Below the pieces are notes generated by a model, which did not search any database, was not told the origin of the DNA, and saw only the letters and a program-made list of their open reading frames with translations. The position numbers and the translations under genes are program-made. From a virus (taxonomy: Duplodnaviria > Heunggongvirae > Uroviricota > Caudoviricetes), in the IMG/VR virus record IMGVR_UViG_2880389630_000006: a stretch of 41,015 nt of DNA. One strand, written 5' to 3'. Position 1 is the first letter of the stretch. Each line of letters starts with the position of its first letter. Below, piece by piece: positions 8,747 through 28,281 of the stretch.

Positions 8747-11221
8747 TTATTGCGGAGTGACATCCTGAGGTCGCCACCAGTATGTCTGGTTAAACTCTTT
8801 CTTCGAACGTTGCTCCATTTTACGCAAATAGCCTGGTGAAAAATACTCCTGCATCTGATTAAAGATCATGTGATCGAGAGCCGCCTTCAAGTACCAGAGA
8901 TTCGCACCAGGCATCAAACCTTTCCCAAGCTTAACCAGATCACCACCAGTCTGCTCATTCTTCCCTTCCACAGCATTTAACGGTATGCCCTGAGCAATCT
9001 TCACTACGTCATCAACCAGACCAGCTACCGGGCCAAGCATCGACGCTAGTGCGCCGCTCCCGTACCTGGTGTGGTCAGAGAAAAGAAAATCACCATACAA
9101 CCCTGCCCCACCACCTTTTAAAAATGCATTTATCCAGAATTTAACCATGTTGTCACCGGTCATTTCTTTTGGATTTCTCCCATTAATAAGATCAGTAATC
9201 TGCATGGAAAGAGCACCAAGCATGGTTGTGCTTGCTAAAAACGTTGCTATATATGCCGCACGCCCACCAGCAGACGGCATACCCATAGCGCGTGACCAGT
9301 GACGCATAACAACCGAGATAGGGAACGATTTAAACAGGAAAACACTTCTCGTTAATTCACCTTTCCATGTTCCACGCTGAAGACCAGACCCTACGAACAT
9401 CTGTTCACGTGCGCCCGGTGTAATAACAGCCATATCAACTTCTTCAGTTACGGCACCGAGCAGTTTACGCATTGCCTCAAATTTCACGCGTTCAGACTCA
9501 CCAAGATGTTTAACTGCTGAATCAGGGATACGCATAATGCTTTCCGGTGTCAGCATCGTATTATTACCGTTCCCCCAGTCCTCCTGTTGCGCCAGCTTCC
9601 ATACGCTCCAGTCTGTGTCAGTAATCCCTTTGCTTTTCAGGATACGAAAATCAGAGTCATCGAGGCTACGAAGGTCTGGTGTCCGTGACACTACTTCTCC
9701 CAGGCTTCCCATCATGGTTACGCCATAAGCGCGCTTGTGCGCATCTGACCATGCTGTAAGCCCACTGGCACGCATTACCGCCGTTGCCGCCCAACGAGAT
9801 ACTGACGGCCCCATATTATCCATCGCCCAGCGGTTAACGCTGCCAAGTAGAGATTCCATCGCCAGACCAGCGCGGCGCGCCCGCGCAAGTTCTGTACGGT
9901 TCGTTGGGTCCATAGCTTCAAGCTGGTTGCGGAATAACTGGTTCATTGGAAGGTTGGTCACCTTCGCAGACAGATACATGGTTCCAAGATCAGAGAACGA
10001 TGACAGCAACGCGGATCCGAGTCTGCTGGCAACCAGCCAGTTGCGGATATTGTCAGACCATCGCGCGATGTGCGGATTCGCTACAGGCTGTGTCTTTCCG
10101 GAAATAAAGTTGTACAGATTCTCTGTTTTGTTCGCCAGCCGCTCGACGCTACCGGTTTTACTCGGGTTAGCTGTTGCCGTTTCTGCCTTCACCTGATCAA
10201 GAAGGGAACGGAAAACATGATCGGGGTTTGGACCATATGTTTCCACCAAAGCAATATCTTTACTGATACCTTCCAGGTGACCGACCATGATTTCCCATAG
10301 AGAGCGATCGCCATAAAGTTGCTGATATTGCAGATAGGAATCTGCATCTTTGAAATGTATCTGTCGTGATGCATTACCACGGTTAGCACGTGCGCCGGAA
10401 ATTCGCATTCCGGTATCAGTAAGCTTATTCAGCCCACCAGTAGCGATCGTGTTATAAGCCTCTCCAAGAAATGCAGACAACTCGGCATCGTTCATCAGTT
10501 GTCCATCGGCTCGGGTATAATATTTGCGATCCAGCTTACCTATAACATCGCTAACCCACTTATCCTTTGATACCGCCCCAACCTTTTCCATAGAATGATG
10601 TTGAGGGATCCCCCAGTTTTCGAGATAGCCAATGTCCCCACCAGCATCATTAAACCGGCGGCGCAGCAGCTCTGTAACTTCTCTCCACGCCTTAGCACCT
10701 TTTCTTGCTTTAGCATTGCCAGTATTTTGCCCCCGCATTTCATATACCAGGTCACGTACGCCCGCTTCATCTTCAAACAGGCCAAAAAAGCGAGGATCAA
10801 CTGCTTCAAATGCCTCCTGCAATTGACTCAATGCATAATCACGAGTGGCTTTTGTTCTGGATTCAACAGAGAGGAAATTCGATTTACCGTCTGCATTAAA
10901 AGCAATAGTACGGTTAAGAGCGCCAAGTTTCCCATCAGCCCCTTGATAGCTATTGATAAATTTATCCAATCTCTGACGTGCGGCTATAGTGAGGGCCACA
11001 CGACGTTTCTTTAATGCCGCTTCTCGCTGTAATTCTTCAGATGCCAATTGTGCTGCACGATACAACCGTTCTGATTCGGAAAGTTGTCGCCACGACATAG
11101 GGTCATCACGAGCAATGGAGCGCATATTTCGATAAATGCGGTCTTCAATGTTCTGTATTTCTCGCGCCGTTAACGTGCGCTGCGCCGCCTGCTGGACCGC
11201 TTGTATACATTCCTGTCTCAT
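8747..11221 (-). CDS. Large virion internal / ejection protein (T7 gp16-like position)
   Basis: 824 aa, no TM or enzymatic motif recognised; assigned by position in the structural operon. Confidence 0.55.
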   Translation of the reverse strand: MRQECIQAVQQAAQRTLTAREIQNIEDRIYRNMRSIARDDPMSWRQLSESERLYRAAQLASEELQREAALKKRRVALTIAARQRLDKFINSYQGADGKLGALNRTIAFNADGKSNFLSVESRTKATRDYALSQLQEAFEAVDPRFFGLFEDEAGVRDLVYEMRGQNTGNAKARKGAKAWREVTELLRRRFNDAGGDIGYLENWGIPQHHSMEKVGAVSKDKWVSDVIGKLDRKYYTRADGQLMNDAELSAFLGEAYNTIATGGLNKLTDTGMRISGARANRGNASRQIHFKDADSYLQYQQLYGDRSLWEIMVGHLEGISKDIALVETYGPNPDHVFRSLLDQVKAETATANPSKTGSVERLANKTENLYNFISGKTQPVANPHIARWSDNIRNWLVASRLGSALLSSFSDLGTMYLSAKVTNLPMNQLFRNQLEAMDPTNRTELARARRAGLAMESLLGSVNRWAMDNMGPSVSRWAATAVMRASGLTAWSDAHKRAYGVTMMGSLGEVVSRTPDLRSLDDSDFRILKSKGITDTDWSVWKLAQQEDWGNGNNTMLTPESIMRIPDSAVKHLGESERVKFEAMRKLLGAVTEEVDMAVITPGAREQMFVGSGLQRGTWKGELTRSVFLFKSFPISVVMRHWSRAMGMPSAGGRAAYIATFLASTTMLGALSMQITDLINGRNPKEMTGDNMVKFWINAFLKGGGAGLYGDFLFSDHTRYGSGALASMLGPVAGLVDDVVKIAQGIPLNAVEGKNEQTGGDLVKLGKGLMPGANLWYLKAALDHMIFNQMQEYFSPGYLRKMEQRSKKEFNQTYWWRPQDVTPQ

Positions 11222-11226
11222 TTAAT

Positions 11227-13029
11227 TTAACCTCTCAAGAAACACGCCACAGCGACATCAAACAGGCTGGAATCCTGTATTGCCTGCTCACTTTCCCTGT
11301 TCGCTTCATCCAGCACTTCACGCGCGCTGCGCGATTGTGGATTACCATCATCATCCAGCACGGTGATTATCATGTCAGGTGATTCAAGCAGCGAGTCTTC
11401 AGCTATGCGCAGATCAATATCTCCTGCCTGATCCGCCATCATTTTTTGTTCTGCATGTTGCAATATTTTATCAGGCTCAAAAGGAGCTACTTCGTCTGGC
11501 GTCCTGACCTCTGCTGTTTTATAGAATGAAACAGCCTGAGCATTAAGTTCACTTTCTGCCTGCTGTCTCCGAGCCAGTTCTGCTCGAGCTTCAAAAAACT
11601 GACCGCCAGGCTCATGCGGTGCCAACGCGTTACGGGAAAATTCCAGGCGTTCTTGTGCCTGCCGGATTCGTTGTTCAATATCGCGAATTCTGGCCTGTTT
11701 ATCTGATCGAGCACGAGACAAAGCTTTACCGCTACCAGTTGGCTCTTCTGCAAGAATTTGTGCACGCTGTTCAGTGAGATTTTCAATAATTCGTTGGCTA
11801 TTAGCGATTTCAGACTGGTAAACCTGTCTATCTCCACGCGGCAAAAGCTGCGCGGCCTGTTCTTCAAGCAACCGATTTTCTATAGCGCGCGCCGTTACTC
11901 CATCATCTACAGATGACAGAGCCTCATTAACTGCCTGAGACAGCAGACTCTTGCGCCCAGGAATTTCACTGAAAGATGCAGACTCAACAATGCTGGCAAC
12001 GTCTACAGGTCTCCCCTGGCTAACATCAGACATAGCTTTTCGCAGAGCCTGAATGTGAGAATTGCGCGAAAGCACGTTGATCGGCACGCCGGGCGCAATA
12101 TCAATTTCAGCATGATGAGCGGCATTCGCCGCCAGTGCAGCATCAACATCAACTGGTGAAAAATTTGGTGCGCTTGTAGACTCGCCGCGAGAGTTAATAA
12201 ATCTGCCGACTCCACCAAAAGCCACCCCAAGAACAGCATCAATAGCAATTGCCTGTCGATCCAACACATCATACTGGTTAGCCATTTCGCTATAGCCACC
12301 ATCACGAAGCGTTTTTGCAGTAAGCCCGCGCTGTGCCATACCGAACGCAATATTTGTACCTGCGGCATAGGCAATATCTGGCGTTGCACGTACTGCTGTT
12401 GCCGCGGCGCGTCGCACTGAACTTTCACCCGTCCGCGCAAGCTGAGCCGCCACACCTTCCGCCAGCGCACCACCAGCACGTAACCCGAGACTCATAGGGA
12501 TCAGTGTTCCGGCACCAGCAGTAATACCCTGCACTAATCCCGCTTCCTGCGCCGTCCTGAAATCAACCCCCTGCGCTGTCAGTCGTTCAAACTCAGAAAA
12601 ACCCTGTAGCGAAGTTACCGCCGCAGCACCTCCGACCGGACCACCGAGCGTTGTACCGACAACAGCCTGCCCGCCCATATCGAACAACCCATAAAGAACC
12701 TGCCCTGCGGTTCCGGTTGTCGCGGCATCAGGCGTCAGCCGCTTAACCTGCTGCTCTGCTAGTTTTCTCTGCTCGGCAATGTATGAAACTGAAGTGTCAT
12801 TGAGCGAGGTGTTTTCGTTAACAAACTGAGCAATCGGGGATACGATTTTATCCATCCCTGCCCATAGCAACTGATCTGGCTTTGCCACCAGCCCGGAGTA
12901 CAAACCAGACAATGCCGCTCCTACAGCATTGTCGAAAAAACCAACATCGCTGTTAAAGCCAACTGGATTTGATGCTGCTTCGTCAAGCTGCTGATTCTGG
13001 TTTACTGGATTAAGGCCAAAGTAACTCAT
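11227..13029 (-). CDS. Virion internal protein, Gly/Ala-rich
   Basis: 600 aa, Ala/Gly-rich central region and coiled-coil C-terminal half; positional assignment. Confidence 0.55.
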   Translation of the reverse strand: MSYFGLNPVNQNQQLDEAASNPVGFNSDVGFFDNAVGAALSGLYSGLVAKPDQLLWAGMDKIVSPIAQFVNENTSLNDTSVSYIAEQRKLAEQQVKRLTPDAATTGTAGQVLYGLFDMGGQAVVGTTLGGPVGGAAAVTSLQGFSEFERLTAQGVDFRTAQEAGLVQGITAGAGTLIPMSLGLRAGGALAEGVAAQLARTGESSVRRAAATAVRATPDIAYAAGTNIAFGMAQRGLTAKTLRDGGYSEMANQYDVLDRQAIAIDAVLGVAFGGVGRFINSRGESTSAPNFSPVDVDAALAANAAHHAEIDIAPGVPINVLSRNSHIQALRKAMSDVSQGRPVDVASIVESASFSEIPGRKSLLSQAVNEALSSVDDGVTARAIENRLLEEQAAQLLPRGDRQVYQSEIANSQRIIENLTEQRAQILAEEPTGSGKALSRARSDKQARIRDIEQRIRQAQERLEFSRNALAPHEPGGQFFEARAELARRQQAESELNAQAVSFYKTAEVRTPDEVAPFEPDKILQHAEQKMMADQAGDIDLRIAEDSLLESPDMIITVLDDDGNPQSRSAREVLDEANRESEQAIQDSSLFDVAVACFLRG

Positions 13030-15539
13030 TGCGGAATATCTCCGGAGAATCTCTGACGCTTCTGTGTCAGATCAAGAACAACGGGAGAACCATCATCTTT
13101 TAGCAGATAACCAGTACCAAGTTTCACCAGGTACTGACTATCGCCGTAACTTTGCAAACCATACTGACCAGGCGGTGTTTTTATCCCTGTGCCAACAACT
13201 TGTTCACTCCAAGCCTGATTAACCTGCTTATCGAATTGCTCTGCAGACATTCCCCACGGCAAAAGAACATTCCCCATTCCGTTATAGTCATGCACGCCAC
13301 CTGTAGCTACGTTAACAGCCTGTTTCCAGATATCATTGTCAATTTCGCCTGATACCACGCCTTTTTTCGCCATCACACCAGCGTAATAGTCCTTTGCGAT
13401 CTCGTATGCCATTGATGCCCCCTGAGCATCACCAGCAAATGCATCCTTCACCATGTCAGAAAACTCAAGGCGAAGATCAGCATCTTTAGGCATCGGAATA
13501 CCTTTCGCGTCATCAGTACCTTTACGAGCCGCCGCGCCAGCAAGAATTGTCTGCGCAGCGGTTTCTGGAGACACGGAAACATCCGGATTAAACCAGTTTT
13601 TTTCTGCCAAAATACCACCTGGCTTATCCATCAGTATCCCGGCAACGGCAGCAGATGGAGCGTTGGCACTGATCTGCTGTAGTGCTGACATATACACCTG
13701 CCCACCACCAGTGCTCTGCCTGATGGTATCGAGATATGCTGCCTGTTGGGAAACGGGCGCATCACGAAAGAAAACACCGATCTGATTGGCCTCGTCTTTG
13801 GAAAAGAACGTCAGTGGAGTGCCATATGACTTAGCAAGGTCACTGACCTGAGCAGCACGCAAGGCAACGCTCTGTCCAAAGTTATCCTTATTGCTCATGT
13901 CGATAGGCTTTGCCTGTCCGGCGGCAAGAGAGAACTGCACAGGATCCGATTGCCGCTGCTTTATCACCTGATTTGCAGCCGAAACAACGTTGTCATAAAG
14001 AGCTGCGCGTGCCGCATACCCCTCCCCTGTCTCACCAGTATCCGGGCGTAATTGCTCAACATATGCTGTAATGCTGCTTGTCGGCATGTTGCGGAAAGAG
14101 CCTATATACTGTCCGGCGATCTGCGTATTCTTAAACTCGGTATATCGCAGGTTTCCTTCTCTGACTCCATAAGCTGCAATAAAATCAGCCTCACCAGGTG
14201 GGTTAGGAAATTCAACTCCACGCATATACGCAGCTGTTGCATCTCGAACCTGGCTGTCAATCATCGTTTTATATTCAGCCTGCTGCTGCCGACGCAGTTG
14301 ACCAGCCTGTCGCATAAAACTTGCCTGCGCCTCAGGAGATGCCGCATCGAATGCTGCATTACCGGTATAGCGTTTGGTGTTGGTTGGAATTGTTGATAAA
14401 CCAAGTGCTGCACTGACACCAGCAGTTAACTGCTGATCACTGTATGGCTGGCTACCGTTCTCATGATGGATAATGGCTGCACAAAGCGCCTTCAGGGTAT
14501 CAGGATTTGATGCATCGAGAGGCTCATCAGCAGAAACGCCAAGTTGTTCGCACACCGCTTTGATATACGACATTGTGTCATTTTTATCAGTGGGCGGTGC
14601 CCAGCGATTAATTATCTCGCTGACGGTATCAATACCCTGCCGCTGATACGACATCAGGTTCCGCCCTAATGCACGAATCCCGTGTTCAGGTGTTTCGAAT
14701 TTAGCAAATCGACCATCATCACCGGTCTGGCCTACCCACGGATTAGTTTTGCTGTATTCGAGATTTCCTGGGTTATTGTTGCGTATGCCACGGGCACGCT
14801 CGGAAGAGTCACTATCTGCTACAGCACGGCGAGCTCCAGCAGCAGTATCACTTAACTCGCCATTACTTTGGATGAATGCGGTCGCATTGTTTGCCGACCA
14901 CTGGGACAATGCAGCATCAGCAACCTTCTCTTTAAACTCGATTTTCTTGGCCTGGATTTGCTCGTCACTCCAGCCATGTGCAATGCCGTAATCCTCAATT
15001 TGCTGGAAAGTTTGCTTATTAGCCAATACGTATGCGGCGTTGTCGCCATACAATGCTGCGGCATTTTTACCATTGTTCAGCAGCGTAGCCTGAAACTGGC
15101 CTTCTTCGTAGGCATTTATTTGCCCTATCTCGTGCCGCCCTGCCTGCGTAGTGAACTGAATGCGCTGCTGCTGCGCCTGCTGCATGAAAGCATTACGAGC
15201 CTGTTCATCCGGCAGCGACATAGCCAGTTGTTCGACCTGAGCATCAAACTGCTGCGTATACTCATGGCCTTTTCCAATAGCATTTTTCCCTTTCAGGTTA
15301 AGCAATCCTGTTTCAGGATTATTCAGCAGATCACTGCTTATCTGACTGAGGTTAAGAGATGCCTCCTGAGCCAGAGCGATATTGGCACGCTGTTTTGCCT
15401 GACCAAAAACATCAATTGCCTCTGTCCCTGCCCGAACAAAAGCATCACCAATACCTGGCTGAGAAAACGTCTGCAAGCCTGCTGACTGAACTCCACGGCT
15501 CTGAACCTGACGGCCGGATACTGTTGGTACGACTGGCAT
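13026..15539 (-). CDS. Large virion internal / ejection protein (T7 gp15-like position)
   Basis: ATG at 15539 (MPVVPTVSG...) preceded by GGAGG and overlapping the upstream stop (TAATG); the track's 25-residue N-terminal extension is rejected. Confidence 0.55.
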   Translation of the reverse strand: MPVVPTVSGRQVQSRGVQSAGLQTFSQPGIGDAFVRAGTEAIDVFGQAKQRANIALAQEASLNLSQISSDLLNNPETGLLNLKGKNAIGKGHEYTQQFDAQVEQLAMSLPDEQARNAFMQQAQQQRIQFTTQAGRHEIGQINAYEEGQFQATLLNNGKNAAALYGDNAAYVLANKQTFQQIEDYGIAHGWSDEQIQAKKIEFKEKVADAALSQWSANNATAFIQSNGELSDTAAGARRAVADSDSSERARGIRNNNPGNLEYSKTNPWVGQTGDDGRFAKFETPEHGIRALGRNLMSYQRQGIDTVSEIINRWAPPTDKNDTMSYIKAVCEQLGVSADEPLDASNPDTLKALCAAIIHHENGSQPYSDQQLTAGVSAALGLSTIPTNTKRYTGNAAFDAASPEAQASFMRQAGQLRRQQQAEYKTMIDSQVRDATAAYMRGVEFPNPPGEADFIAAYGVREGNLRYTEFKNTQIAGQYIGSFRNMPTSSITAYVEQLRPDTGETGEGYAARAALYDNVVSAANQVIKQRQSDPVQFSLAAGQAKPIDMSNKDNFGQSVALRAAQVSDLAKSYGTPLTFFSKDEANQIGVFFRDAPVSQQAAYLDTIRQSTGGGQVYMSALQQISANAPSAAVAGILMDKPGGILAEKNWFNPDVSVSPETAAQTILAGAAARKGTDDAKGIPMPKDADLRLEFSDMVKDAFAGDAQGASMAYEIAKDYYAGVMAKKGVVSGEIDNDIWKQAVNVATGGVHDYNGMGNVLLPWGMSAEQFDKQVNQAWSEQVVGTGIKTPPGQYGLQSYGDSQYLVKLGTGYLLKDDGSPVVLDLTQKRQRFSGDIPQ

Positions 15540-16084
15540 TATAATCCTCCGGGTAATCTGGTTCCTGCTGCTGCCCCGATTGGCGCAGGGGTGCTTTGAG
15601 TAAACGGACTCCACGTCCCACCAAACATCTGGTACGCACCGTATGCCTTCAGAGGCGCAGTGAGCAATGTTGTTGCTGCTCCTACATTCCCCTGTTTACG
15701 GGCTGAACTGGCTTCTGCTTTATAGTTGGCAGCCTGAACCTGATAACCGTAAGCCTCGCGTTGCGCGTTATTCACCGTCGTCAGAGAATCAAGAGCGCCA
15801 AACTGGGCAGTGTCGCCAAATATATCCAGCGCGTTACCTGTAGATAAATCAGCGCCGGTAGCCCCCATTGTCGCCGCCTGTGTACCAAGCCGCTGTCGGG
15901 TCTCTCTGCGCCGTTGCTCAGCTTCAGCGTTACCTCTGTTTATTGCATCATTTGCCTGAGCAGTGGCTATATCTGCGTTCGCTTCTGCAACCTTCGAGGC
16001 ATACTTTCCCTGTTGGTACTGGGTGTATGCCTGAATGCCACTCATGGCGAGCATTGCGCCACCAGCAATAACCGGATCGCACAT
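15539..16084 (-). CDS. Small virion internal protein (T7 gp14-like position)
   Basis: 181 aa, Ala/Gln-rich; translationally coupled to its neighbours. Confidence 0.5.
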   Translation of the reverse strand: MCDPVIAGGAMLAMSGIQAYTQYQQGKYASKVAEANADIATAQANDAINRGNAEAEQRRRETRQRLGTQAATMGATGADLSTGNALDIFGDTAQFGALDSLTTVNNAQREAYGYQVQAANYKAEASSARKQGNVGAATTLLTAPLKAYGAYQMFGGTWSPFTQSTPAPIGAAAGTRLPGGL

Positions 16085-16548
16085 TATTTTCTCTCCATGT
16101 GAAATCTGTGGAAATTAAGACCAAGAGCACCATAAGGCGCGGCCTCTTCAAGCCTGAATCCAAGCCAGTGCAGCCATGCTTTGGCAACATGGTTTCGCTC
16201 GTCGACGTAGTTTTCCAGGCGCGGATAAACTGCCAGCATCTGCTGCAATAAAGGTCGGCAGTGGCGAAGAAATGTCTTCTGATATTTTTCAATACGGCTG
16301 GTTCCGACCAGCCAGGGCGTACCATTGCCACCGATCATTGACGCCGGAGATACGCCAAACATGGTTACCAGTTCTCCGTTCGCAAATCCTGACCAGGCCA
16401 TAGTCGCAGTACGCAGACCAACACGCAGCGCATCTTCGGTAGTCATCAGTGATACCGCATACAGTTCGTCAATATCAGCCTGACGAACATCCGGCAAAAT
16501 CATCTGAAGATGCTCTTCGGTAGCGGGAATAATTCGAACATCGATCAT
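16084..16548 (-). CDS. Virion protein (T7 gp13-like position)
   Basis: 154 aa; start overlaps the stop of the upstream tail gene. Confidence 0.5.
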   Translation of the reverse strand: MIDVRIIPATEEHLQMILPDVRQADIDELYAVSLMTTEDALRVGLRTATMAWSGFANGELVTMFGVSPASMIGGNGTPWLVGTSRIEKYQKTFLRHCRPLLQQMLAVYPRLENYVDERNHVAKAWLHWLGFRLEEAAPYGALGLNFHRFHMERK

Positions 16549-19627: not shown

Positions 19628-19953
19628 TCACCCCCGTTACCGTAAAGGGTTTCAGCAGCGGATTTATCCGGCTCGCCGGTTGCAGGTGCGATCGCCATGT
19701 CGGTGATCTGCAGGTCTGCGCTACGGTTAACGCCGTCATCAGTTTCGCGGGCAGACAGTCCGCGAATTACCGCCTTAGCAGTAATCATCACTTCGGTTCC
19801 TACACCCTGCGGTTGCGCCTTGAGCTTATTCAGCGTGTCATTGTTCAACGTGATGCAAAGCCCCCATGGATATTCGTCGCGGTTTTTGGTTTCTCCGCTC
19901 TCGTCCTGGTAGCTGTCGGTGCCGATTTTGAGGTTGACCAGTTCCATATACAC
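19624..19953 (-). CDS. Small head/tail-junction protein
   Basis: 109 aa ORF translationally coupled to the downstream tail gene. Confidence 0.45.
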   Translation of the reverse strand: MYMELVNLKIGTDSYQDESGETKNRDEYPWGLCITLNNDTLNKLKAQPQGVGTEVMITAKAVIRGLSARETDDGVNRSADLQITDMAIAPATGEPDKSAAETLYGNGGE

Positions 19954-19997
19954 TCCTGCAATAAAGGGGCCGAAGCCCCTTGTCTGATACGCGAGGC

Positions 19998-20333
19998 TTA
20001 CACGCCCAGTTCTTTGCGCTTATCTGCGATTTTCTCGCGAAGCGTTTCGGCTTTGGCGTTATGGTGCGGCTTCTCGTTAAAGAGCAGTTCATACTCTTCG
20101 CGGATCTTATCCAGATCGCCATCTTCGGCTGCATCGTTGATGGGTTTGGCACTGGTTACGGTTTCTGCTGCTTTACCTGTAACCTTTGCTTTCGCCGCCT
20201 TCGCTGCATCGTTGATGGGCTCCAGTGCACTACCTGGCTCGCCGTCGTATTCAATTTCAGAGCCCTCCGGCCACAGGTTATTGTGGATATGAGAGAGGCG
20301 CAGAACGCGGTACTTCGGTTTCTCACCTGACAT
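19998..20333 (-). CDS. Small capsid-associated protein (possible decoration/staple protein)
   Basis: 111 aa, Lys/Ala/Glu-rich, directly downstream of the capsid-region genes. Confidence 0.45.
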   Translation of the reverse strand: MSGEKPKYRVLRLSHIHNNLWPEGSEIEYDGEPGSALEPINDAAKAAKAKVTGKAAETVTSAKPINDAAEDGDLDKIREEYELLFNEKPHHNAKAETLREKIADKRKELGV

Positions 20334-20343
20334 CGATATCCCC

Positions 20344-20781
20344 TTAGCCGGTTACTTTGGAGCGGATCGGATACGGCGTATTTGCATCAACATCCAGGTT
20401 AATGCCGGAAGTGAATTTGCCGGCCGTTAGTGGGTCAGTTGCGACGGAGTAGTTAACACGCAGATATCGCTGAACACCGGCAGGCACCTTTGCAGAAACA
20501 ACTCGTTTACCTGCTGTCAGGGTAGCCTTTGCCAGTGCGCCACTATCATAAATAGTGGACCATGAGCTGTTATTCTCACTCGTCTGCAACTGGATGTTTA
20601 CAGTTGCCTCACCACTTGCCGTGGCGGCTTCGTTAACCAGCGCCCAAAACTCAAGCGGGTAACCCACGCCGATATCGCGACGATTTCCATCAATTGGACC
20701 GAGATCGATTACGTCAGTAGAAGCCGCGGTATCAGTTACCGCCTGTGCTTCGGAGAACATCAACAGTTTGTCGGTGATCAT
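20344..20781 (-). CDS. Capsid-associated protein (possible decoration protein)
   Basis: 145 aa, Ser/Thr/Ala-rich beta-type composition, directly after the major capsid gene. Confidence 0.45.
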   Translation of the reverse strand: MITDKLLMFSEAQAVTDTAASTDVIDLGPIDGNRRDIGVGYPLEFWALVNEAATASGEATVNIQLQTSENNSSWSTIYDSGALAKATLTAGKRVVSAKVPAGVQRYLRVNYSVATDPLTAGKFTSGINLDVDANTPYPIRSKVTG

Positions 20782-20832
20782 CTTCTTTCTCCATTAGTGG
20801 GTCTGTTACGACCCACTGGTTAATAACAGGCG

Positions 20833-21825
20833 TTACACCACACGGGCTTCTGTTTCCAGAAGCGCATCAGTTTCACGGATTGGTACACCACGGAATGAAG
20901 TCCACCACTCGCCTTCTGTCTCTTTTACGCTGATCGCCAGAGATGTTTTCTCCAGAGATTGCAGATCAAGAGCCTGGCCTACAGTGCGGTTCATGTAGAA
21001 CACCGGGCGACCCATTCCACGGTTTGGAATGCGATGCAGTGCTTTAACCATCAACTTCGCAATATTTGCGGCAGAGGAAGGTTCTGAAAGATTGCTGACA
21101 TCGATGTTTGCAATGCGAACAACATAACGCCAGTCACGCAGAGCAAGTCCGTTGTCCCATTTGTAATGGGTGCGATAGCCTTCGTACTTGCCGCCATTAG
21201 CATCTTCCAGTGTCACCTGGCCTTTATCTTCCATCTGGATGCCAGCCTTCTGCCCTTTCGGGAAGATGCCATGCACGGTGTTTTCGCCCCACACCACTAA
21301 CCAGATTGAGGTGTTATCTGTACCCGTGCCACCAGCATCAATGATGTTCTGAGCATTACCCGCAGACAGGCTGGAATAGCGGGAGGACAGTCCCATAAAC
21401 TGCTGAGGGTTAACGCTGGAATCACCATAAAACAGTGTCTGCGCCATCTGCTGATTCATCGCCTCAATAAATGCGCGGTCTTCAGACAGGCGGAATTCGG
21501 CGGTATTACCGTTCAGATCAGCCAGTGACTTATCGACTTCAGCATAGGTTTCCAGCATGCCAACGTAATCGGTGACCTGCACTGTGGTTGATTTGCTTGG
21601 CTGTACGCCATAGTTCAGCAAACGCCAGGTAGCTGAAGGTAAACCAGAACGAATGGTGGTTCGGTGTCCGGTAGGAAGGTTCCCTTCGACAAAAGGCATA
21701 TCCTGAAGGATCGGGTTAGTTTGACCGAGAAGCTCGATAATCTTATCGACTTTCCCGTTTGGATCGACGCGCTTACCCCAGTCAGCCAGCGTTAGCGCAG
21801 TTAAGCCTTTAACAGACATTGTCAT
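20833..21825 (-). CDS. Major capsid protein
   Basis: 330 aa, directly downstream of the scaffold gene; size and position typical of a major head protein. Confidence 0.65.
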   Translation of the reverse strand: MTMSVKGLTALTLADWGKRVDPNGKVDKIIELLGQTNPILQDMPFVEGNLPTGHRTTIRSGLPSATWRLLNYGVQPSKSTTVQVTDYVGMLETYAEVDKSLADLNGNTAEFRLSEDRAFIEAMNQQMAQTLFYGDSSVNPQQFMGLSSRYSSLSAGNAQNIIDAGGTGTDNTSIWLVVWGENTVHGIFPKGQKAGIQMEDKGQVTLEDANGGKYEGYRTHYKWDNGLALRDWRYVVRIANIDVSNLSEPSSAANIAKLMVKALHRIPNRGMGRPVFYMNRTVGQALDLQSLEKTSLAISVKETEGEWWTSFRGVPIRETDALLETEARVV

Positions 21826-21833: not shown

Positions 21834-22535
21834 TTATTTGCCATAGAGCACTTCGGCCGCACTACGCTGGCCTTCATTACCACCGGTGACCATGCCATCT
21901 TCAGACATCGCCTTTCCGATTTTCACGAACGTTTTGACCAGATCAGGGTGATTACCCAGCCCGGTGGTGTTCAGATATTCTTTGAGTTCAGGTGTCCCGA
22001 ACTGGTCAAGCGCACGCTGTGCGGCGCTAAGGTTAGAAATCAACTTGTCGCCACCGATTTCTTTGTCAGCTTTTACATCCGCAGCCCACTGCTCGGTTGT
22101 TTTCTGCCAGGCTTCTGCCTGGCGCTGCTGAACACCTGCCAGAATCTTCGGATAAGCATCAACCAGCTTTTGCGCTTGCTCGTTGGTCAGGTTTAGTTCT
22201 CGCGCCACCGGCTCGAATTCCTTCAACGCTTCTGTATCCAGCTCTACGCCTTCGGCAGCCTGAAACTCGTACTTCTCAGGCGCACCATCTGGTTTATCGC
22301 CGTCCTTTTTTTCATCCTGCTTATCGTTTTCAGGCTTTTTGTCATCAGCAGGTTTATCGCCATCAGCAACAGGTTGTGGCTTATCACCTTCCGGTTGTGA
22401 TGGATCACCAACTGGAGCAGGGTTATCACCTGCAGGCGCTGACGGTTCTGACGCAGCCGGAGCTGCTCCACCATCGACTGGTTGCTCATTGCAAAGACGG
22501 CGATACAGCAAACGCTCAAATAAATTCATGATCAC
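21834..22535 (-). CDS. Scaffolding protein
   Basis: Highly acidic Pro/Asp/Lys-rich N-terminal half (PAPVGDPSQPEGDKPQPVADGDKPADDKKPENDKQDEKKDGDKPDG), helical C-terminal half; between portal and capsid genes. Confidence 0.6.
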   Translation of the reverse strand: MIMNLFERLLYRRLCNEQPVDGGAAPAASEPSAPAGDNPAPVGDPSQPEGDKPQPVADGDKPADDKKPENDKQDEKKDGDKPDGAPEKYEFQAAEGVELDTEALKEFEPVARELNLTNEQAQKLVDAYPKILAGVQQRQAEAWQKTTEQWAADVKADKEIGGDKLISNLSAAQRALDQFGTPELKEYLNTTGLGNHPDLVKTFVKIGKAMSEDGMVTGGNEGQRSAAEVLYGK

Positions 22536-22828
22536 TCCTGTTCACTGGCCTCTTTGGCCATCTTCAAATACTGTTCAGGGCAATGCGCCATAACGCGCTG
22601 AAACAGTTCCAGCGCCAGATTGCGTTGCCCCTCATTAAATGCCATTGCCATAGCGTCCATCGGTGAGATAGCGGAAAACACACGGCCTTTCTCCAGCACC
22701 GACCAGACAACGCGACGCCCCTGTTCACTGCTCATGACAAAGCGAATGTCATCAATTTCACGCTGTGCCATGTCACGTTGCTTACGGGCGTTTTCTTCTT
22801 TCAGTTGATCATCTTCGTAATCTGTCAT
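22532..22828 (-). CDS. Small head-assembly-associated protein
   Basis: 98 aa ORF overlapping portal stop and scaffold start (translational coupling). Confidence 0.45.
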   Translation of the reverse strand: MTDYEDDQLKEENARKQRDMAQREIDDIRFVMSSEQGRRVVWSVLEKGRVFSAISPMDAMAMAFNEGQRNLALELFQRVMAHCPEQYLKMAKEASEQE

Positions 22829-24504
22829 TGTGATTGCCCACCCTGACCACTAACTGCATTCGCCATAGCTGACAAAACACTCGGATCCGAAGTTTTAGCT
22901 TCGCTTAGCGTCTTGGCGCCCTGTGCCGCCGCCATTCCCATCGCCATCATTTGTTGCTGCTGTTGCTGCTGTGCCCGTTGCTGGCGAGCCTGCTCAACCT
23001 GTTCCTGCGGAACAATGACGGTTGGAGACACTCCGGACATATCAGCGAATGCATCGATCGCCTGATCAACATTGAGTTTGTCGAGAGCTTCTGGTTTCGC
23101 TTGCGCAAGTTGACCAATGAAGTTGACCGTAGACGCCAGACTGGACAGGCCGATAGACTTCTGCGCCTGAGCCATGACGGAAATGTATTCGACCTTCAGG
23201 GGCATACCTTCCATCGCGTCAGGCGGTGGCGGCAGCATGTTTTTACGCACCATCATCGAGAAAGCGCGGTCAATGAGAGGATTAAGACATTCGTCGTTCA
23301 GACGCTCCAGAACCGGCCCCAACATCAGAAGTTTTTCTTCTTTCATTTCGATCACCGCTTCAACAGGCATCGAGCGGGTATTGATGTTCTGCAACATCAT
23401 GAACAGATCGACAAAGTAGGCGCTGTTAATGATTTGACGAGTGTCCTGAATGTCTGCCACCAAATCTGCTGTACTGGGGTTAACCAGATAAGCAGGCCTG
23501 AAGCCATCCTGACCAGTAATCTGATCGATATACGTGATGTCGCCAGGAAGAAGGGAGGCGCGCTGATTCTTGAGGGAAGTCGGAGCAACCATCGGCGGAT
23601 TGGTGGCTTTATCAATCAACTGCGACTTGCGCTTCTGGAGAAGCTGCAATGCCTTAACAGGTCCAAGCGCCAGCATACCCGGGCATGATGATCCATAAAC
23701 ATCTTCGCCGTTAACTTCCCAGCGCGGAGCCATAATTGGAAACTCATCGAATCCGGACTCACGCAACAACTTGTCGTTATCTCCACCAACCTCGTAATAA
23801 ACCGATTTGAATGGCTTGTTCTTGCTATCCAGCTTCGATGTATCGCGGTCAATGTTCGGGTAAACCGAATGCATCACTTCGATCCACTTCTCGTAGGTGC
23901 CGCTTTCCCACATGCTTTTTACGGATTCGCTGACGTTATTTAGCCCGAACTCCTGAACAAGCTGACGAACAGTCATAGAGAACTTGCGAAAACAGGTGTC
24001 AACACTGCCACGAGGTGAGTTAGCCAGGTAGTAACTGCCTATCGGGAATGGCATTGTGCGAATGATGTCCTCGTCATCCTCCAGCACTGCCATTGCACCA
24101 GTGCTGTATGTGCCGAGGCTTCCGTATAACTGCGGAAGAGACTGGTAGAGATTCGAATTATTGAACATATCGTTCATGCGGTTCTGAACTGCCTCAAGCC
24201 ACAACTTAACAGGGCCATAATCCATCATTTCAGGATCTGGCGTAGCCAGGCGAAACCACGGACGCGCAGGGCTTGTGATGCCTGACATCATGCCGCTGGC
24301 GAGAGTGCGCGCCGCCATAGTCCCGGTCGAATCAATAATGCGTGTATTGCGTCGATCGTTACGGTTGACCTCAGAAGTCAGAAAGCGGGAACCACGCGGG
24401 TTGATGTAATCACTCAACTCGCGCCAGTGCGGCTCGAACGACTGACGCTCGCTTTCAAGTTGTGCGAACTGTTTGTTCAATCGCTCTTTAGTTGTTTCCG
24501 CCAT
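22825..24504 (-). CDS. Portal protein
   Basis: 559 aa, first large gene after terminase; Gln-rich C-terminal tail (QQRAQQQQQQQMMAMGMAAAQ) typical of podovirus portals. Confidence 0.7.
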   Translation of the reverse strand: MAETTKERLNKQFAQLESERQSFEPHWRELSDYINPRGSRFLTSEVNRNDRRNTRIIDSTGTMAARTLASGMMSGITSPARPWFRLATPDPEMMDYGPVKLWLEAVQNRMNDMFNNSNLYQSLPQLYGSLGTYSTGAMAVLEDDEDIIRTMPFPIGSYYLANSPRGSVDTCFRKFSMTVRQLVQEFGLNNVSESVKSMWESGTYEKWIEVMHSVYPNIDRDTSKLDSKNKPFKSVYYEVGGDNDKLLRESGFDEFPIMAPRWEVNGEDVYGSSCPGMLALGPVKALQLLQKRKSQLIDKATNPPMVAPTSLKNQRASLLPGDITYIDQITGQDGFRPAYLVNPSTADLVADIQDTRQIINSAYFVDLFMMLQNINTRSMPVEAVIEMKEEKLLMLGPVLERLNDECLNPLIDRAFSMMVRKNMLPPPPDAMEGMPLKVEYISVMAQAQKSIGLSSLASTVNFIGQLAQAKPEALDKLNVDQAIDAFADMSGVSPTVIVPQEQVEQARQQRAQQQQQQQMMAMGMAAAQGAKTLSEAKTSDPSVLSAMANAVSGQGGQSQ

Positions 24505-25152: not shown

Positions 25153-25229
25153 GTGGCATTAGCTCAGTCGGACAGAGCAACCGCCTTCTAAGCGGTTGGT
25201 CGCAGGTTCGAATCCTGCATGCCACGCCA
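25153..25229 (+). tRNA. tRNA-Arg (anticodon UCU)
   Basis: Hand-folded cloverleaf: 7-bp acceptor stem GTGGCAT/ATGCCAC, D-arm gctc-agtcggaca-gagc, anticodon stem accgc/gcggt with loop CT-TCT-AA, T-arm gcagg-TTCGAAT-cctgc, discriminator G plus encoded CCA. Resembles but is not identical to enterobacterial argU. Confidence 0.85.
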
Positions 25230-25427
25230 GAATCACGCCTAAGGACCGTGATGCCAGAAGTTCCAGGGGCTTGGCGGTGATGGTTTCCCTTGAAGGACTA
25301 TCACCGCCCTTTTTACAGCAGGACGCCATTGCGATGACTTCATGCTGTAAACCCGTACAGCCACGGAAGGCATAACTCATTGCTTCCAGTTCGCCCGGTT
25401 CGCCGGGCATTTTTTTAAGGTGAGATT

Positions 25428-25799
25428 ATGAACGACAAGCAAATCGAAAAAGAAATCGTTGAGAAAGGCAAAACGGCACCGCGCGTTACGCCAGACCATA
25501 TCGAAGGCATTATTGCTCAGGAGGCATATTTCACAGCAGAAGATGGTGCCTTTGGCAAAGCCATAAAAGCGAAACATACTGGCGGAGAGGTAAACTACCA
25601 GCCGCACGAATCACTTTCTCTGCTGACGTTCTGCGTCCTGGTGCTGCGCAACGGCTTCACCGTCACCGGAGAGAGCGCCTGTGCAAGCCCGGAAAACTTT
25701 GATGCAGAAATTGGTCGGAAGATTGCCCGGCAGAATGCTGTAAACAAAATCTGGATGCTCGAAGGTTACTTGCTGAAGCAGAAGCTAAGCGAGCAATAA
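25428..25799 (+). CDS. Conserved phage protein, Gp49-like (tentative)
   Basis: 123 aa on the strand opposite the flanking terminase/portal genes; family assignment from memory of the Gp49-type signature (LTFCVLVLRNGFTVTGES), unverified. Confidence 0.45.
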   Translation: MNDKQIEKEIVEKGKTAPRVTPDHIEGIIAQEAYFTAEDGAFGKAIKAKHTGGEVNYQPHESLSLLTFCVLVLRNGFTVTGESACASPENFDAEIGRKIARQNAVNKIWMLEGYLLKQKLSEQ

Positions 25800-25846: not shown

Positions 25847-25889
25847 ATCCTCATCAGAGGATATCAACGACATTATCCCCACCAGCGGA

Positions 25890-27365
25890 TTAAGCATAGG
25901 GATCGTAATCTGTGATGGCCTTGCCTTGCTGGTTCTGCTGCCCGGGAATTCGCAGACGCTTCGACACAGGGAACGCAAACGTCAGCAGTAGCGCATCGCC
26001 TTTACCAGGCGAACGCCCAAGCCGCTCCTTGATATCTTCCTTCGGTTCGATAACGATTTTACCGTCCACTCGAACTTTGTACTCTGCCGCCGACAGATCG
26101 TCCGCTGTTTCCTGGTCATCCAGCATCCCGCCCAGCCTCAGCCATGTCTTGCATGAGTTGAACATCTCCCCACGCTTGTTGAGCATCTGCTGGTCAGTAG
26201 ACGCGCCACCGAACGGAACAAGTTGCCATGTACGACCCCAGCCGTCACCGATTGACTTCAAACCGGTTCCGTAACCGAAGTCGATGAACACCGCGTCAGC
26301 CTGATACTGGTCTTCAAAGTCAGCGATACGCTTCGCCATAATCAGATCGTCGGTAGTCTTGTTGCCAGTCCACAGCACCTTACTGTGTAGCCCCTGCCGC
26401 AGGTATATCACAGCGTCATCAACGCCGGAGTATGCCGGGTCAACGCCGATTATCACCGGAGCATGTGCAACCTGCGCAGCGGTGACCACCCGTTTCATTG
26501 CCTCGTCAGTAAGTCCGGTAGGGATAAACTGCAATTCAGATGCATCCGGGAATATGCCGCGCACACGGATTTTAACGAAGTCGCTGTCTTCCCCGTAGTC
26601 ATCAACCCATTTCTGCAACTGCTGTTTGTTAGTGCCTTCCACCGTCCGGCTGTCAATCTGCGCAGTTTTCCAGCGGTGTTTATATTTGCGGAAACATTCG
26701 CGGAAACGCCCGGTGTTACGTGTAGGGTTTCCGAACGCCACCCAGATAATCTCAGTGTCTTCGTCCGTAAGCGCACCCTCAGCAACTTCCCACACCAGAT
26801 CCGCAATGTTCGACGCTTCATCGAATACCACGATGATGCGTTTGCGCTCGTTGTGTAGTCCGGCGAATGCCTCAGTGTTGTGCTCAGACCAGGGTATTGC
26901 GTCAGCTCGCCACCGCTTGTCGTGTCCAGGATCATTGCTGTACATCGCGGTAGCGGTACAGGTAAACCAGTCTTTCGTGATAGCAAGGTTCGACCACTTG
27001 ATAATTTCCGGCCAGGTCTTCGTTCGTAGCTGGTTGTCGGTGTTGGCGGTCACCACAACCTTACAATCCTCGCAAGTGGACATGCCCCAGTTGATCAGCA
27101 TTGAGATGAATGCGGATTTACCAATACCGTGACCCGAAGCGCGTGCCAGCATAAGCGGCTGATAGCGCGTCTCTGGATTCTGCAGGTGATCACGTATCTC
27201 TCGGAACGCATCAGCCTGCCACTGACGTGGACCGGTGGCATGTGCCAGTTCAGTCCCATCTTCCCCCCACGGGAACGCATAGAGGGCATAGCCAAGCGGA
27301 TCGTGAGTGAACCCTGCAATATCCTCGATTAACTGCTCTTCAGGAGATAACGCTGTATCTGTCAC
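25890..27365 (-). CDS. Terminase large subunit
   Basis: 491 aa; P-loop-like ARASGHGIGKSAF in the N-terminal ATPase region, acidic nuclease-type motifs in the C-terminal half; follows the small-subunit gene with ATGA overlap. Confidence 0.8.
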   Translation of the reverse strand: MTDTALSPEEQLIEDIAGFTHDPLGYALYAFPWGEDGTELAHATGPRQWQADAFREIRDHLQNPETRYQPLMLARASGHGIGKSAFISMLINWGMSTCEDCKVVVTANTDNQLRTKTWPEIIKWSNLAITKDWFTCTATAMYSNDPGHDKRWRADAIPWSEHNTEAFAGLHNERKRIIVVFDEASNIADLVWEVAEGALTDEDTEIIWVAFGNPTRNTGRFRECFRKYKHRWKTAQIDSRTVEGTNKQQLQKWVDDYGEDSDFVKIRVRGIFPDASELQFIPTGLTDEAMKRVVTAAQVAHAPVIIGVDPAYSGVDDAVIYLRQGLHSKVLWTGNKTTDDLIMAKRIADFEDQYQADAVFIDFGYGTGLKSIGDGWGRTWQLVPFGGASTDQQMLNKRGEMFNSCKTWLRLGGMLDDQETADDLSAAEYKVRVDGKIVIEPKEDIKERLGRSPGKGDALLLTFAFPVSKRLRIPGQQNQQGKAITDYDPYA

Positions 27366-27994
27366 TGATTACCATCCTGACGTTCTTTGAGTCGCTTCCT
27401 GGCTGCTGCTATGCGATCAGCAATTGTCACATTCACATTAACATCCAGACGTTCTTTGAATGCGTTGACATCAACATGCTTACCAATCAGCTCAAGGTTC
27501 TTCACCTTGTCAGGCCATTTCACCTTCTTCAGGATATGCTCGACATCCTCAACAGAGAGATCCGCCTCGCCATTCTCTTTTTGCAGGGAAGCCTGGGTTG
27601 TCTTGATGGTAGCGATATCCATAGCACTGAGAGAGGTACGCCAGACCTTCGGCCATTCAGCGATCGGCTTCATCCCGCCGTCATCGTTCAGTATATCCAG
27701 CACGTCCATCTGGTCGATCTCCACCAGGCGCATGAGAACGTAATCAGCACTGACGCGCATTCGTTTGTTGCGCTCCTCCATCAACTCGGCAATCCGTTTT
27801 TGAATGCGTTCATCGCGCATCATGACACTTGCTTTAACTGCCGCTGTATTTGGGGAGAATCCTGCGTTAATCGCTGCCTGAGTCTGGTTTTCAGGCGTTT
27901 TGATGTATGACTGGCAATAAGCCTCCTGCATTGCTGTTAGTGGCTTAAATTGCGTTGATTTACGTTTATAGGTTTTAGGTTCAGCAGGCATCAT
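27362..27994 (-). CDS. Terminase small subunit
   Basis: Internal ATG at 27994/27991 (MMPAEPK...); the track start is TTG and its extension runs through a tandem DNA repeat, so it is rejected. Confidence 0.6.
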   Translation of the reverse strand: MMPAEPKTYKRKSTQFKPLTAMQEAYCQSYIKTPENQTQAAINAGFSPNTAAVKASVMMRDERIQKRIAELMEERNKRMRVSADYVLMRLVEIDQMDVLDILNDDGGMKPIAEWPKVWRTSLSAMDIATIKTTQASLQKENGEADLSVEDVEHILKKVKWPDKVKNLELIGKHVDVNAFKERLDVNVNVTIADRIAAARKRLKERQDGNQ

Positions 27995-28068
27995 AACCAC
28001 CGTGGTAATAGTTACCGTTGTGGTAATAGTACCATGCAAAATAAAGCCGCCATAGTTGGCGGCAGTAT

Positions 28069-28281
28069 TCAAAGTCCATCAAATTCATCGTAAAAACTCT
28101 CGTCAAGATACCATTCCCATTTACCGCGAATGAAAATTACATCCTCGCCGCAAGGGTGCTGACTGTCGATAACTATATCCCTCCTGGCGCAACCATACTT
28201 ATTCATGAGAAATTTAACCTCTTTCGGAAAATTTGCTGAGTTATCTCTCATATCTTCAAGGTCGTAGCGTATTTTTGGCAT
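28069..28281 (-). CDS. Hypothetical small protein
   Basis: ATG at 28281 (MPKIRYDL...); AT-rich; the track's GTG start at 28302 lies inside the 12-bp palindrome. Confidence 0.4.
   Translation of the reverse strand: MPKIRYDLEDMRDNSANFPKEVKFLMNKYGCARRDIVIDSQHPCGEDVIFIRGKWEWYLDESFYDEFDGL

Follow-up and report, generated by a model that had tools for sequence, protein, structure and literature searches.

Salmonella phage epsilon15 (NC_004775), the genus type with a virion solved by cryo-electron microscopy, and Escherichia phage phiV10 are temperate podoviruses of the genus Uetakevirus, for which the T7-related tail and ejection module has already been analysed in print (PMC4819975). In that work, Hardies et al. 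(2016) found a strong match between hidden Markov models (HMMs) of epsilon15 gp12 and the T7 tubular tail protein B (E<1e-10, centred on T7 gp12 354-556), HMM-HMM homologies to T7 were published for epsilon15 gp12, gp13, gp14 and gp17, and the epsilon15 terminase and capsid grouped with siphoviruses, i.e., horizontal exchange (PMC4819975). A 17-bp core has been published as the attP/attB of phiV10, epsilon15 and ZX5 (PMC9782041), and a conserved tailspike anchor with a swapped receptor-binding domain is documented for Uetakevirus (PMC10408124). Here, we report on a stretch of 41,015 nucleotides (IMG/VR record IMGVR_UViG_2880389630_000006; hereafter the window), which is almost certainly a piece of E. 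coli chromosome with a phiV10-like prophage, to all appearance intact, inserted at the guaA 3' end; this prophage has its late operon at positions 8747-28072. A sequence-only reading had described the region as a T7-like virion module combined with a lambdoid immunity and replication core and an integrase, and had named epsilon15-like phages as an example of such temperate podoviruses.

When the late operon was compared with phage records by megablast, phiV10 (NC_007804) matched it at 96.7% nucleotide identity over 99% of the query, far more than chance would give, with equally good matches to ZX5, PAS61, phiv142-3 and the O157 typing phages 9 and 10; epsilon15 matched at ~76% identity over 53%. 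The parts of the window that flank the block match the same phages in patches. In local blastn, 79.3% of the prophage part aligned to phiV10 at a mean identity of 95.6%, and the segments without alignment are 3180-5483, 7291-8743, 28681-31144, 31380-32182, 39103-39775 and two short gaps. About 21% of the prophage part has no DNA counterpart in phiV10, i.e., the greater part of the tailspike gene with its receptor-binding domain (3180-5483), an accessory cargo (7291-8743), a region of small open reading frames (ORFs; 28681-32182) and a NinI-like phosphatase gene. The early region 32183-39102 and the integrase gene are ~98% identical, and gene order, the guaA attachment (att) core and the repressor protein (100%) are held in common. 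Because 79.3% aligns at 95.6%, the likeness is of genus level, not species level: coverage multiplied by identity comes to ~76%, above the criterion used for Uetakevirus (~70% or more nucleotide similarity, so calculated, to a recognised member) and under the 95% of species level. The element is accordingly placed by its sequence in the genus Uetakevirus. Its late operon has the content and order of epsilon15 gp1-gp17, a separate gp20-type tailspike shares the N-terminal anchor, the integrase is of the P4 type, and the 17-bp core for attachment at the guaA 3' end is found at the host junction. A podovirus particle would be expected from the near-identity to phiV10 and the description of ZX5.

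The prophage/host junction and the integrase are placed as follows.

1-1071, plus strand: host flank, non-phage, with yfgH at 1-516 and yfgI at 532-1071 (Pfam Gly-zipper and DUF5384)
1162-1178: 17-bp att core AATCATTCCCACTCAAT, the prophage/host junction on the lysis-gene side
39759-41015, minus strand: P4-type tyrosine integrase (PF13356, PF00589, PF22022; 99% identity to the phiV10 integrase)

E. coli K-12 matches window positions 1-1178 at 97.8% identity, the match reaching 15 nt into the guaA 3' end. The 17-mer core covers the final guaA codons when the site is unoccupied and is an exact copy of phiV10 26720-26736; host identity stops at 1178. With host flank and att core at one end, the window therefore shows the phage in its integrated state, bordered by host DNA on one side, and is not the genome of a free phage. 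It stops ~6 nt upstream of the integrase start, and since the integrase closes the window, the second att junction should lie just outside it. The block 8747-28072 is found at a presence of at least 80% in 283 of 5426 complete E. coli genomes, and its context in the E. coli genomes examined is always chromosomal, in the order yfgI-prophage-guaA. The top match, NZ_CP054388 (99.2% identity), has the same yfgI-side flank and a similar prophage between yfgI and guaA, with the integrase beside guaA. Together with the near-identity to phiV10, this guaA site bears out the earlier suggestion of a temperate podovirus of the epsilon15 type. One point speaks against an intact prophage: the second att junction lies beyond the window, so completeness and inducibility of this particular prophage are presumed. 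If the block were a decayed, non-functional remnant, this position of the junction and the fact that this prophage is known from sequence alone would fit; however, the structural ORFs are all full length with 82-100% protein identity to the plaque-forming phiV10, no frameshifted ORFs were noticed in the block, and intact genes are likewise present for lysis, integrase, repressor and replication, which makes a remnant improbable.

Within the apparently intact prophage, the minus-strand block 8747-28072 is a co-linear run of virion genes, and every gene from TerS to the 824-residue ORF has a homologue in phiV10 and in epsilon15, with the order kept.

27362-28072, minus strand: TerS (PF03592 and PHROG; 85% identity to phiV10)
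25890-27365, minus strand: TerL (PHROG_2; 99% identity to phiV10)
22825-24504, minus strand: portal of the T7 gp8 family (PF12236, 3.8e-187; PDB 8ck0_A, 2.9e-178)
22532-22828, minus strand: Bbp19-like head-module protein, 98 residues (PF25181, 2.8e-17)
21834-22535, minus strand: scaffold-like protein, 233 residues, between the Bbp19-like and capsid genes (PHROG_458 'protease')
20833-21825, minus strand: major capsid protein (PF20911, 5.5e-149; PDB BPP-1 3j4u, 5.9e-128; epsilon15 gp7 3j40, 9e-85)
20344-20781, minus strand: Bbp16-type cement protein, a head accessory (Pfam)
19998-20333, minus strand: ORF of 111 residues between the cement and staple genes
19624-19953, minus strand: gp10-type capsid staple, a head accessory (Pfam)
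19019-19627, minus strand: adaptor, tubular tail protein A-like, 202 residues (PHROG tail and tail tubular families)
16548-19019, minus strand: tail nozzle, tubular tail protein B homologue, 823 residues (PDB 8ck1_A 'Tail Nozzle', 6.5e-219)
16084-16548, minus strand: protein of 154 residues at the T7 gp13 position (PHROG_308 internal virion protein, 6.6e-62)
15539-16084, minus strand: internal virion protein of the T7 gp14 family, 181 residues (PF24072, 2.5e-7; 31.2 bits against a cutoff of 27)
13026-15614, minus strand: internal virion protein, 862 residues, likely start 15539 (59% identity to epsilon15 gp15)
11227-13029, minus strand: epsilon15 gp16 homologue, 600 residues (PHROG_1145; 98% to phiV10, 32% to epsilon15 gp16)
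8747-11221, minus strand: epsilon15 gp17 homologue, 824 residues (PHROG_684 virion structural protein; 96.6% to phiV10p20, 27% to epsilon15 gp17)

The T7 relation of this module is seen in the portal, the nozzle and one internal protein. T7 gp8, used as a control, matches the same Pfam model as the window portal (PF12236, 2.8e-113), and the P22 portal goes to PF16510; T7 gp14, likewise a control, falls in PF24072, i.e., the family of the 181-residue protein. For the nozzle, homologues were searched among 1.84 billion representative proteins (18,279 matches at E<=0.001), and a profile was built from 43 diverse homologues that are 36-88% identical to the query. By hhalign, this profile aligns with residues 308-465 of T7 gp12 over 140 columns at an E of 6.7e-5, with a probability of only 64%; it matches a PDB chain named 'nozzle gp13' at 1.4e-5. 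The tail proteins are also related to solved structures. The adaptor matches 8ck1_E 'Connector Protein' (5.6e-27) and 9efk_T (orf17, the 12-chain LME-1 adaptor; 6.3e-6), and the nozzle matches the LME-1 nozzle 9efk_M (orf18, 6-chain) at 2.3e-15, or at 5.3e-59 with the profile. The 9EFK entry is the tail of Legionella phage LME-1, in which portal and adaptor each form a ring of 12 subunits, the nozzle is a hexamer and six trimers of the fibre are present; its authors describe it as 'closely resembling' that of T7 (PMC12407071). For epsilon15, the RefSeq record carries a note that cites an HHpred match of the adaptor to T7 gp11.

Several results weigh against a T7 relation of the module as a whole. 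Pairwise BLASTP and phmmer of the window proteins against T7 proteins gave nothing significant, and the adaptor, nozzle, gp13-like and capsid proteins fall short of the Pfam models that T7 gp11, gp12, gp13 and gp10A match (in Pfam, the adaptor has no PF17212 match, the nozzle no PF25675 match, and the 154-residue protein no match to the T7 Gp13 model). With shallow profiles, hhalign returned an E of 0.38 for the adaptor against T7 gp11 (three sequences) and of 0.25-0.27 for the 824-residue protein against T7 gp15/gp16. Both AlphaFold models, of the 233- and 824-residue proteins (predicted local distance difference test, pLDDT, 43.6 and 36.5), are of low confidence, which precludes fold comparison; they were used for secondary-structure content only. 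The shallow profiles (effective number of sequences, Neff, ~1.1) are uninformative, since no relative below 81% identity came from the homologue searches. All proteins of the window were also compared by BLASTP and phmmer with the six-frame ORFs of T7, lambda and P22: none of the structural proteins matched, and the matches were confined to P, Ea22, NinI, int and a few ORFs of the ea type. Because the pairwise searches were negative, the T7 relation is visible at the profile level only, and because the shallow profiles gave no match, the assignments of gp17 to gp16 and of the adaptor to gp11 stand on literature and position. We take portal, nozzle and gp14-like protein to be truly linked to T7, and not the capsid shell or the terminase.

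In gene order, the likeness to T7 runs through the portal, a gene at the scaffold position, capsid, adaptor, nozzle, internal proteins with a muralytic domain, and a fibre or spike; in families, it comprises the portal and gp14-type Pfam families and the central domain of the nozzle, which aligns to gp12. The module is unlike T7 in its capsid family, in the extra cement and staple, in having five internal genes against four, in carrying the muralytic domain in the third internal protein and not in the last, in the terminase standing before the portal and not at the far end of the module, in the lack of an RNA or DNA polymerase, and in being temperate.

The terminase genes are assigned to PHROG_2 and PHROG_51, and the staple and cement genes match PF21628 (1.3e-48) and PF21190 (2.5e-46). 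PDB 8cjz is also among the matches of the capsid protein, which is 62% identical to that of Bordetella phage BPP-1 (NC_005357) and 43% to that of epsilon15; for the portal the values are 44% and 81%. Compared with epsilon15, whose late operon, lysis cassette, integrase and immunity region are in the same order gene for gene, the portal (81%), nozzle (88%), adaptor (85%) and TerL (95%) are close, and the divergent proteins are capsid (43%), cement (36%), staple (40%), the two distal internal proteins (32% and 27%) and the repressor (42%); epsilon15 has its own O-antigen polymerase conversion genes and a different tailspike. These identities mark the capsid-shell cassette 19624-21825 as mosaic within the genus, at the level of protein sequence. 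BPP-1 has the same head-tail gene order and shares the Bbp16 and Bbp19 family members with the window (nozzle 39% over 264 residues); its own are DNA polymerase, primase and helicase genes, a diversity-generating retroelement and a different att site, and it is without the lambda P-type replication genes. The wider epsilon15 tail homology group takes in BPP-1, BcepC6B and Legionella LME-1, of which the LME-1 adaptor and nozzle are related in sequence to those of the window.

The 233-residue protein has been annotated as 'protease/peptidase' in databases, a label that is probably wrong. Pfam and NCBIfam scans found no domain and no peptidase family in it (the NCBIfam scan, of ten proteins, gave no usable family). 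An acidic, Pro-rich and apparently disordered N-terminus of ~100 residues is followed by an all-helical, strand-free C-terminal half in the AlphaFold2 model (pLDDT 43.6). A scaffold label is preferred because of this disordered acidic N-terminus, the helical C-terminus and the lack of a peptidase family, and it is plausible but unproven that the gene encodes a scaffolding protein; the position on which the earlier scaffold assignment relied does fit.

Downstream of the nozzle gene there are five virion genes, down to 8747, with the muralytic domain in the third. The epsilon15 counterpart of the first, gp13, has been termed a homologue of internal virion protein (IVP) A (PMC4819975). In the 862-residue protein, residues ~274-424 form a muralytic domain of the lytic transglycosylase type (PDB 9vvp_L Gp29, 3.6e-38; endolysin 7q47, 2.7e-17), and the PHROG families are head protein, endolysin and injection transglycosylase; as a database label for an ejection protein, 'head protein' is probably wrong. 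A 'tail length tape measure' PHROG match of the same protein was not taken as siphovirus evidence, as it covers only residues 211-448, which hold the muralytic domain. It is the lone match of that kind, and no sheath or tail-tube family was found. Homologues of epsilon15 gp16 are drawn within the scheme of internal-virion-protein genes (PMC4819975, Fig. 7 legend), and epsilon15 gp17 is listed as the IVP-D (T7 gp16) homologue (PMC4819975, Table 2). Neither the 600- nor the 824-residue protein matched a solved structure in a PDB sequence search. The 824-residue protein has no Pfam match and no tailspike domain, and its AlphaFold2 model is almost wholly helical, at low confidence (pLDDT 36.5); candidates for IVP-C and IVP-D have been described as helical (PMC4819975). 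A tailspike identity for 8747-11221 was ruled out by the gp17 homology, the lack of a spike domain and this helical, low-confidence model.

With these assignments the sequence-only reading holds in outline, and its coordinates and last assignment were off. The joining of a T7-related virion module to a lambda-style early region and integrase is supported by the portal and gp14 Pfam families and the nozzle profile. Its gene order agrees in the co-linear portal, scaffold-position, capsid, adaptor, nozzle and internal genes, and misses the three small head genes between capsid and adaptor. It had counted three to four internal proteins, and there are five; it had ended the block in the tailspike, which lies outside, at 3176-5827, the last ORF being the gp17 homologue; it had run the T7-like pattern from the terminase on, and the terminase precedes the portal here and stands at the far end in T7, with a plus-strand insert between TerL and portal. 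Nor does a T7 relation extend to capsid and terminase, the capsid protein being a PF20911 member closest to BPP-1.

A second account of the virion module would make it P22-like (Lederbergvirus-type) and not T7-related. The layout has much of P22: terminase genes first, then portal, scaffold and coat, and an antirepressor (immI-like) region standing between the ejection proteins and the tailspike. Hardies et al. also assigned P22, T7 and epsilon15 to a single, broad group of homologous tails (PMC4819975). In sequence, however, no structural protein matched P22 by BLASTP or phmmer, the portal is in PF12236 (the T7 gp8 family) and not in PF16510 (the P22 portal), the nozzle profile that fits T7 gp12 gave an E of 0.2 with P22 gp10, and no needle (gp26) homologue was found, so that we give this account very little credence. 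An account in which the element belongs to the T7 supergroup proper (Autographiviridae-like) and has acquired lysogeny genes is hardly credible: the T7-family portal and gp14, the gp12-related nozzle and the T7-like order of adaptor, nozzle and internal proteins would suit it, but no RNA or DNA polymerase family was found among ~50 ORFs scanned with Pfam, all ORFs above 500 residues are accounted for as structural proteins, replication relies on a DnaT-domain initiator and a lambda P-type loader with no family-A DNA polymerase or primase-helicase, the capsid protein is in PF20911 and T7 Gp10A in PF21703, and the terminase genes come before the portal gene; for epsilon15, terminase and capsid were reported to group with siphoviruses (PMC4819975).

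The phiV10-like prophage also carries plus-strand genes inside and beside the late operon. The insert between TerL and portal has two.

25428-25799, plus strand: gene of the N4 gp49/Sf6 gp66 family (PF13876, 8.9e-35), in moron orientation
25153-25229, plus strand: tRNA-Arg, anticodon TCT (ARAGORN; Rfam tRNA, 73.3 bits), antisense to the late genes

The same tRNA-Arg is present in several of the phiV10 relatives (the set being ZX5, PAS61, phiv142-3, O157 typing phages 9/10 and TL-2011b). This tRNA-Arg(UCU) overlaps an ORF of 83 residues on the minus strand (25159-25410), annotated as p04 in phiV10 and doubtful because of that overlap. AGA codons stand at 5.1-8.6 per 1000 in prophage genes; they are enriched in variable genes and concentrated in the tailspike and distal internal-protein genes.

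Between the virion block and the tailspike gene lie ~2.9 kb of plus-strand and accessory genes, including an immunity-type second region between the last internal-protein gene and the tailspike. The tailspike and the accessory cargo without phiV10 counterpart are as follows.

3176-5827, minus strand: tailspike/receptor-binding protein, 883 residues (PHROG tail spike and tail fibre families)
7489-8028, plus strand: DUF4760 protein, accessory cargo without phiV10 counterpart
8010-8285, plus strand: ORF of 91 residues, accessory cargo without phiV10 counterpart
8324-8737, minus strand: ORF of 137 residues in divergent orientation, accessory cargo without phiV10 counterpart

Residues 1-165 of the tailspike belong to phiV10/epsilon15-type anchor families, with a weak match to the T7 tail-fibre N-terminus, and the C-terminus is an S74 intramolecular chaperone (PF13884, 2.9e-12). 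Residues 171-883 are unrelated to the phiV10 spike and share 71% identity with tail proteins of Kayfunavirus phages, which are lytic and T7-like. Only 88 bp separate the tailspike gene from the holin-like gene, with no O-antigen-modifying gene there of the kind found in phiV10 (oac) or epsilon15 (polymerase genes); the O-acetyltransferase gene (oac) that follows the phiV10 tailspike is thus lacking here, and the spanin is just 52% identical to that of phiV10. The cargo cassette without phiV10 counterpart spans 7291-8743. When the accessory ORFs were compared with PADLOC defence models, there was no match except a generic HNH for 31377-31985.

The regulatory genes lie outside the block in which the sequence-only reading had placed them, at 1266-3087 and 28299-41015. 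The lysis cassette and the early region are made up as below.

1266-1763, minus strand: Rz-type i-spanin, DUF2514 (PF10721, 4.6e-21; 52% to the phiV10 spanin)
1289-1585, minus strand, in another frame inside the i-spanin gene: Rz1-type o-spanin with lipobox LLTAC
1760-2392, minus strand: GH19 endolysin (PF00182; 95% to the phiV10 endolysin; start taken at MEIKQF)
2379-2687 and 2677-3087, minus strand: two holin-family genes (PF05449, 7.5e-27, and PF16931, 9.2e-12)
28299-28640, minus strand, just upstream of the late operon: transcriptional regulator of 113 residues, epsilon15 gp49 homologue
32453-33253, minus strand: helicase loader of the lambda P family (PF06992, 1.5e-56; 30% to lambda P)
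33235-34050, minus strand: DnaT-domain initiator (PF17948 and PF13730, HTH_36), with no similarity to lambda O
34417-34647, minus strand: Cro-like gene, 76 residues, divergent from the repressor gene
34802-35386, plus strand: repressor, 194 residues (HTH_3 only; PHROG repressor families; 100% identical to the phiV10 repressor)
35991-39756, plus strand: leftward early genes, i.e., RecE-like nuclease, RecT, AlpA-type Xis/regulator, PerC-like, MT-A70 methylase and NinI-like phosphatase

The 113-residue regulator (PHROG_536, 8.3e-55) is 98% identical to phiV10p55 and is without a Pfam family. Likeness to lambda consists in the divergent repressor and Cro-like genes with operator clusters flanking the repressor, the recombination genes and int to the left, the P-family loader (30%), the Ea22-like and NinI-like (66%) genes, and the embedded Rz/Rz1-type spanins; among the small early ORFs there are Ea22-like, Eae-like and DUF551/DUF1064 proteins. 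Unlike lambda, the element has no S24 repressor domain, its DnaT-domain initiator is not of the O family, no N, Q, cII or cIII homologue was detected (nor anything like P22 gp24 or gp23), its integrase is of the P4 type and its endolysin of GH19, and repressor-type palindromes stand also at late and accessory operons. The lysis proteins showed no sequence similarity to lambda S, R and Rz and would be functional analogues. The early half is thus lambda-like in layout only, with few lambda homologues; of the lambda-like half proposed earlier, the layout, P protein, Ea22/NinI-like genes and Rz/Rz1 hold, and an S24-type CI, an O-family initiator, N and Q do not.

The RecE-like nuclease and RecT (35991-37750, plus strand) are two overlapping ORFs, also in NZ_CP054388, at a place where a single RecE-RecT fusion is annotated in phiV10. 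The NinI-type Ser/Thr phosphatase gene (38977-39756, plus strand; 66% to lambda NinI) stands beside the integrase and not in a nin region, and phiV10 has a DUF1382 gene at its place.

The window has 13 copies of a palindrome, TTACC-N5-GGTAA (15 bp, at most one mismatch), where 0.66 would be expected; they lie at 5932, 6312, 7345, 24816, 27994, 28012, 32339, 32401, 34347, 34684, 34732, 35444 and 35506. Two of them (27994, 28012) are at the 5' end of TerS, one (24816) precedes the portal genes, two (32339, 32401) follow the P gene and three (5932, 6312, 7345) lie around the antirepressor region. Those at 34684 and 34732 (with a degenerate copy at ~34715) and at 35444 and 35506 lie on both sides of the repressor gene as putative operators. 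In the epsilon15 RefSeq record, sites annotated as 'repressor' stand at analogous places, and the spread of the palindromes suggests direct repressor control of many operons. By Pfam and PHROG scans, the repressor has no S24 (LexA-like) peptidase domain. The second region, between ejection genes and tailspike, has the following features.

5986-6001: near-consensus LexA (SOS) box CTGTATAAATATACAG, ~20 nt upstream of the ORF at 6023-6280
6023-6280, plus strand: epsilon15 gp19/phiV10p24 homologue, 85 residues (94% to phiV10; PHROG_1760 'anti-repressor', 4.8e-7)
6363-6439, plus strand: isrK-family RNA (Rfam RF01394, 74.7 bits; gathering score 50)
6458-6544, plus strand: C4 antisense RNA (Rfam RF01695, 79.5 bits; gathering score 45)
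6593-7279, plus strand: Bro-N domain antirepressor (PF02498, 7.8e-20; 77% to phiV10p23; MTANV start inferred)

The LexA box (TACTGTATAAATATACAGT) is conserved at the same place in phiV10, in epsilon15 and in the prophage of NZ_CP054388, and lambda and P22 lack it. A generic scan for CTGT-N8-ACAG was at the level of chance (17 against 14.5 expected), and only the conserved, near-consensus site at 5986 was kept. Related to the Bro-N protein in the latter's C-terminal portion, the 85-residue protein is a candidate small antirepressor. As the repressor is without a peptidase domain, induction by a LexA-controlled antirepressor is proposed, and the box suggests, by inference only, such an SOS route; it is known for coliphage 186 and the Gifsy prophages (review, PMC7380047). 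The Bro-N homologue of ZX5 has been shown experimentally to favour the lytic cycle (PMC9782041). The isrK and C4 RNAs stand in tandem directly before the Bro-N gene, an arrangement like that of P1/P7 immI, and the location of the three, between ejection-protein genes and tailspike, is that of P22 immI. It is conceivable, if rather doubtful, that these elements make up a three-layer, non-lambda immunity, i.e., a repressor acting at every operon through the 13 palindromes, a LexA-boxed 85-residue antirepressor, and a Bro-N antirepressor gated by C4/isrK. No description of a three-layer design for Uetakevirus was found in the literature searched; the epsilon15 genome paper, outside that search, may well have it.

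From the homologies given above, a course of assembly and infection may be pictured. The TerS/TerL terminase would pack DNA into the capsid through the T7 gp8-family portal; the shell would consist of the epsilon15/BPP-1-type capsid protein, probably built on the helical scaffolding protein and strengthened by cement and staple. Twelve adaptor and six nozzle subunits would make up a stubby tail of the T7 type. The five internal-virion/ejection proteins, including the gp14-family and muralytic-domain proteins, would be carried in the virion and expelled at infection, then digesting peptidoglycan and making a trans-envelope conduit for the DNA. Six trimeric tailspikes would dock by the conserved N-terminal anchor, with the exchangeable domain setting O-antigen specificity. 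Induction would probably go through antirepressors and not through repressor cleavage.

An element of this kind is already known, as a sequenced, structurally studied and taxonomically named genus, and nothing new is shown in that respect. The main value is in annotation: the prophage boundary is fixed at guaA, the tailspike gene is corrected, and doubtful database labels are flagged. The tailspike gene sets O-antigen specificity and is used in phage and tailocin engineering (PMC10408124). The mosaic pattern is a textbook case of modular phage evolution and no new principle: the backbone is kept, and exchange affects the receptor-binding domain of the tailspike, the capsid-shell cassette and the accessory cassettes.

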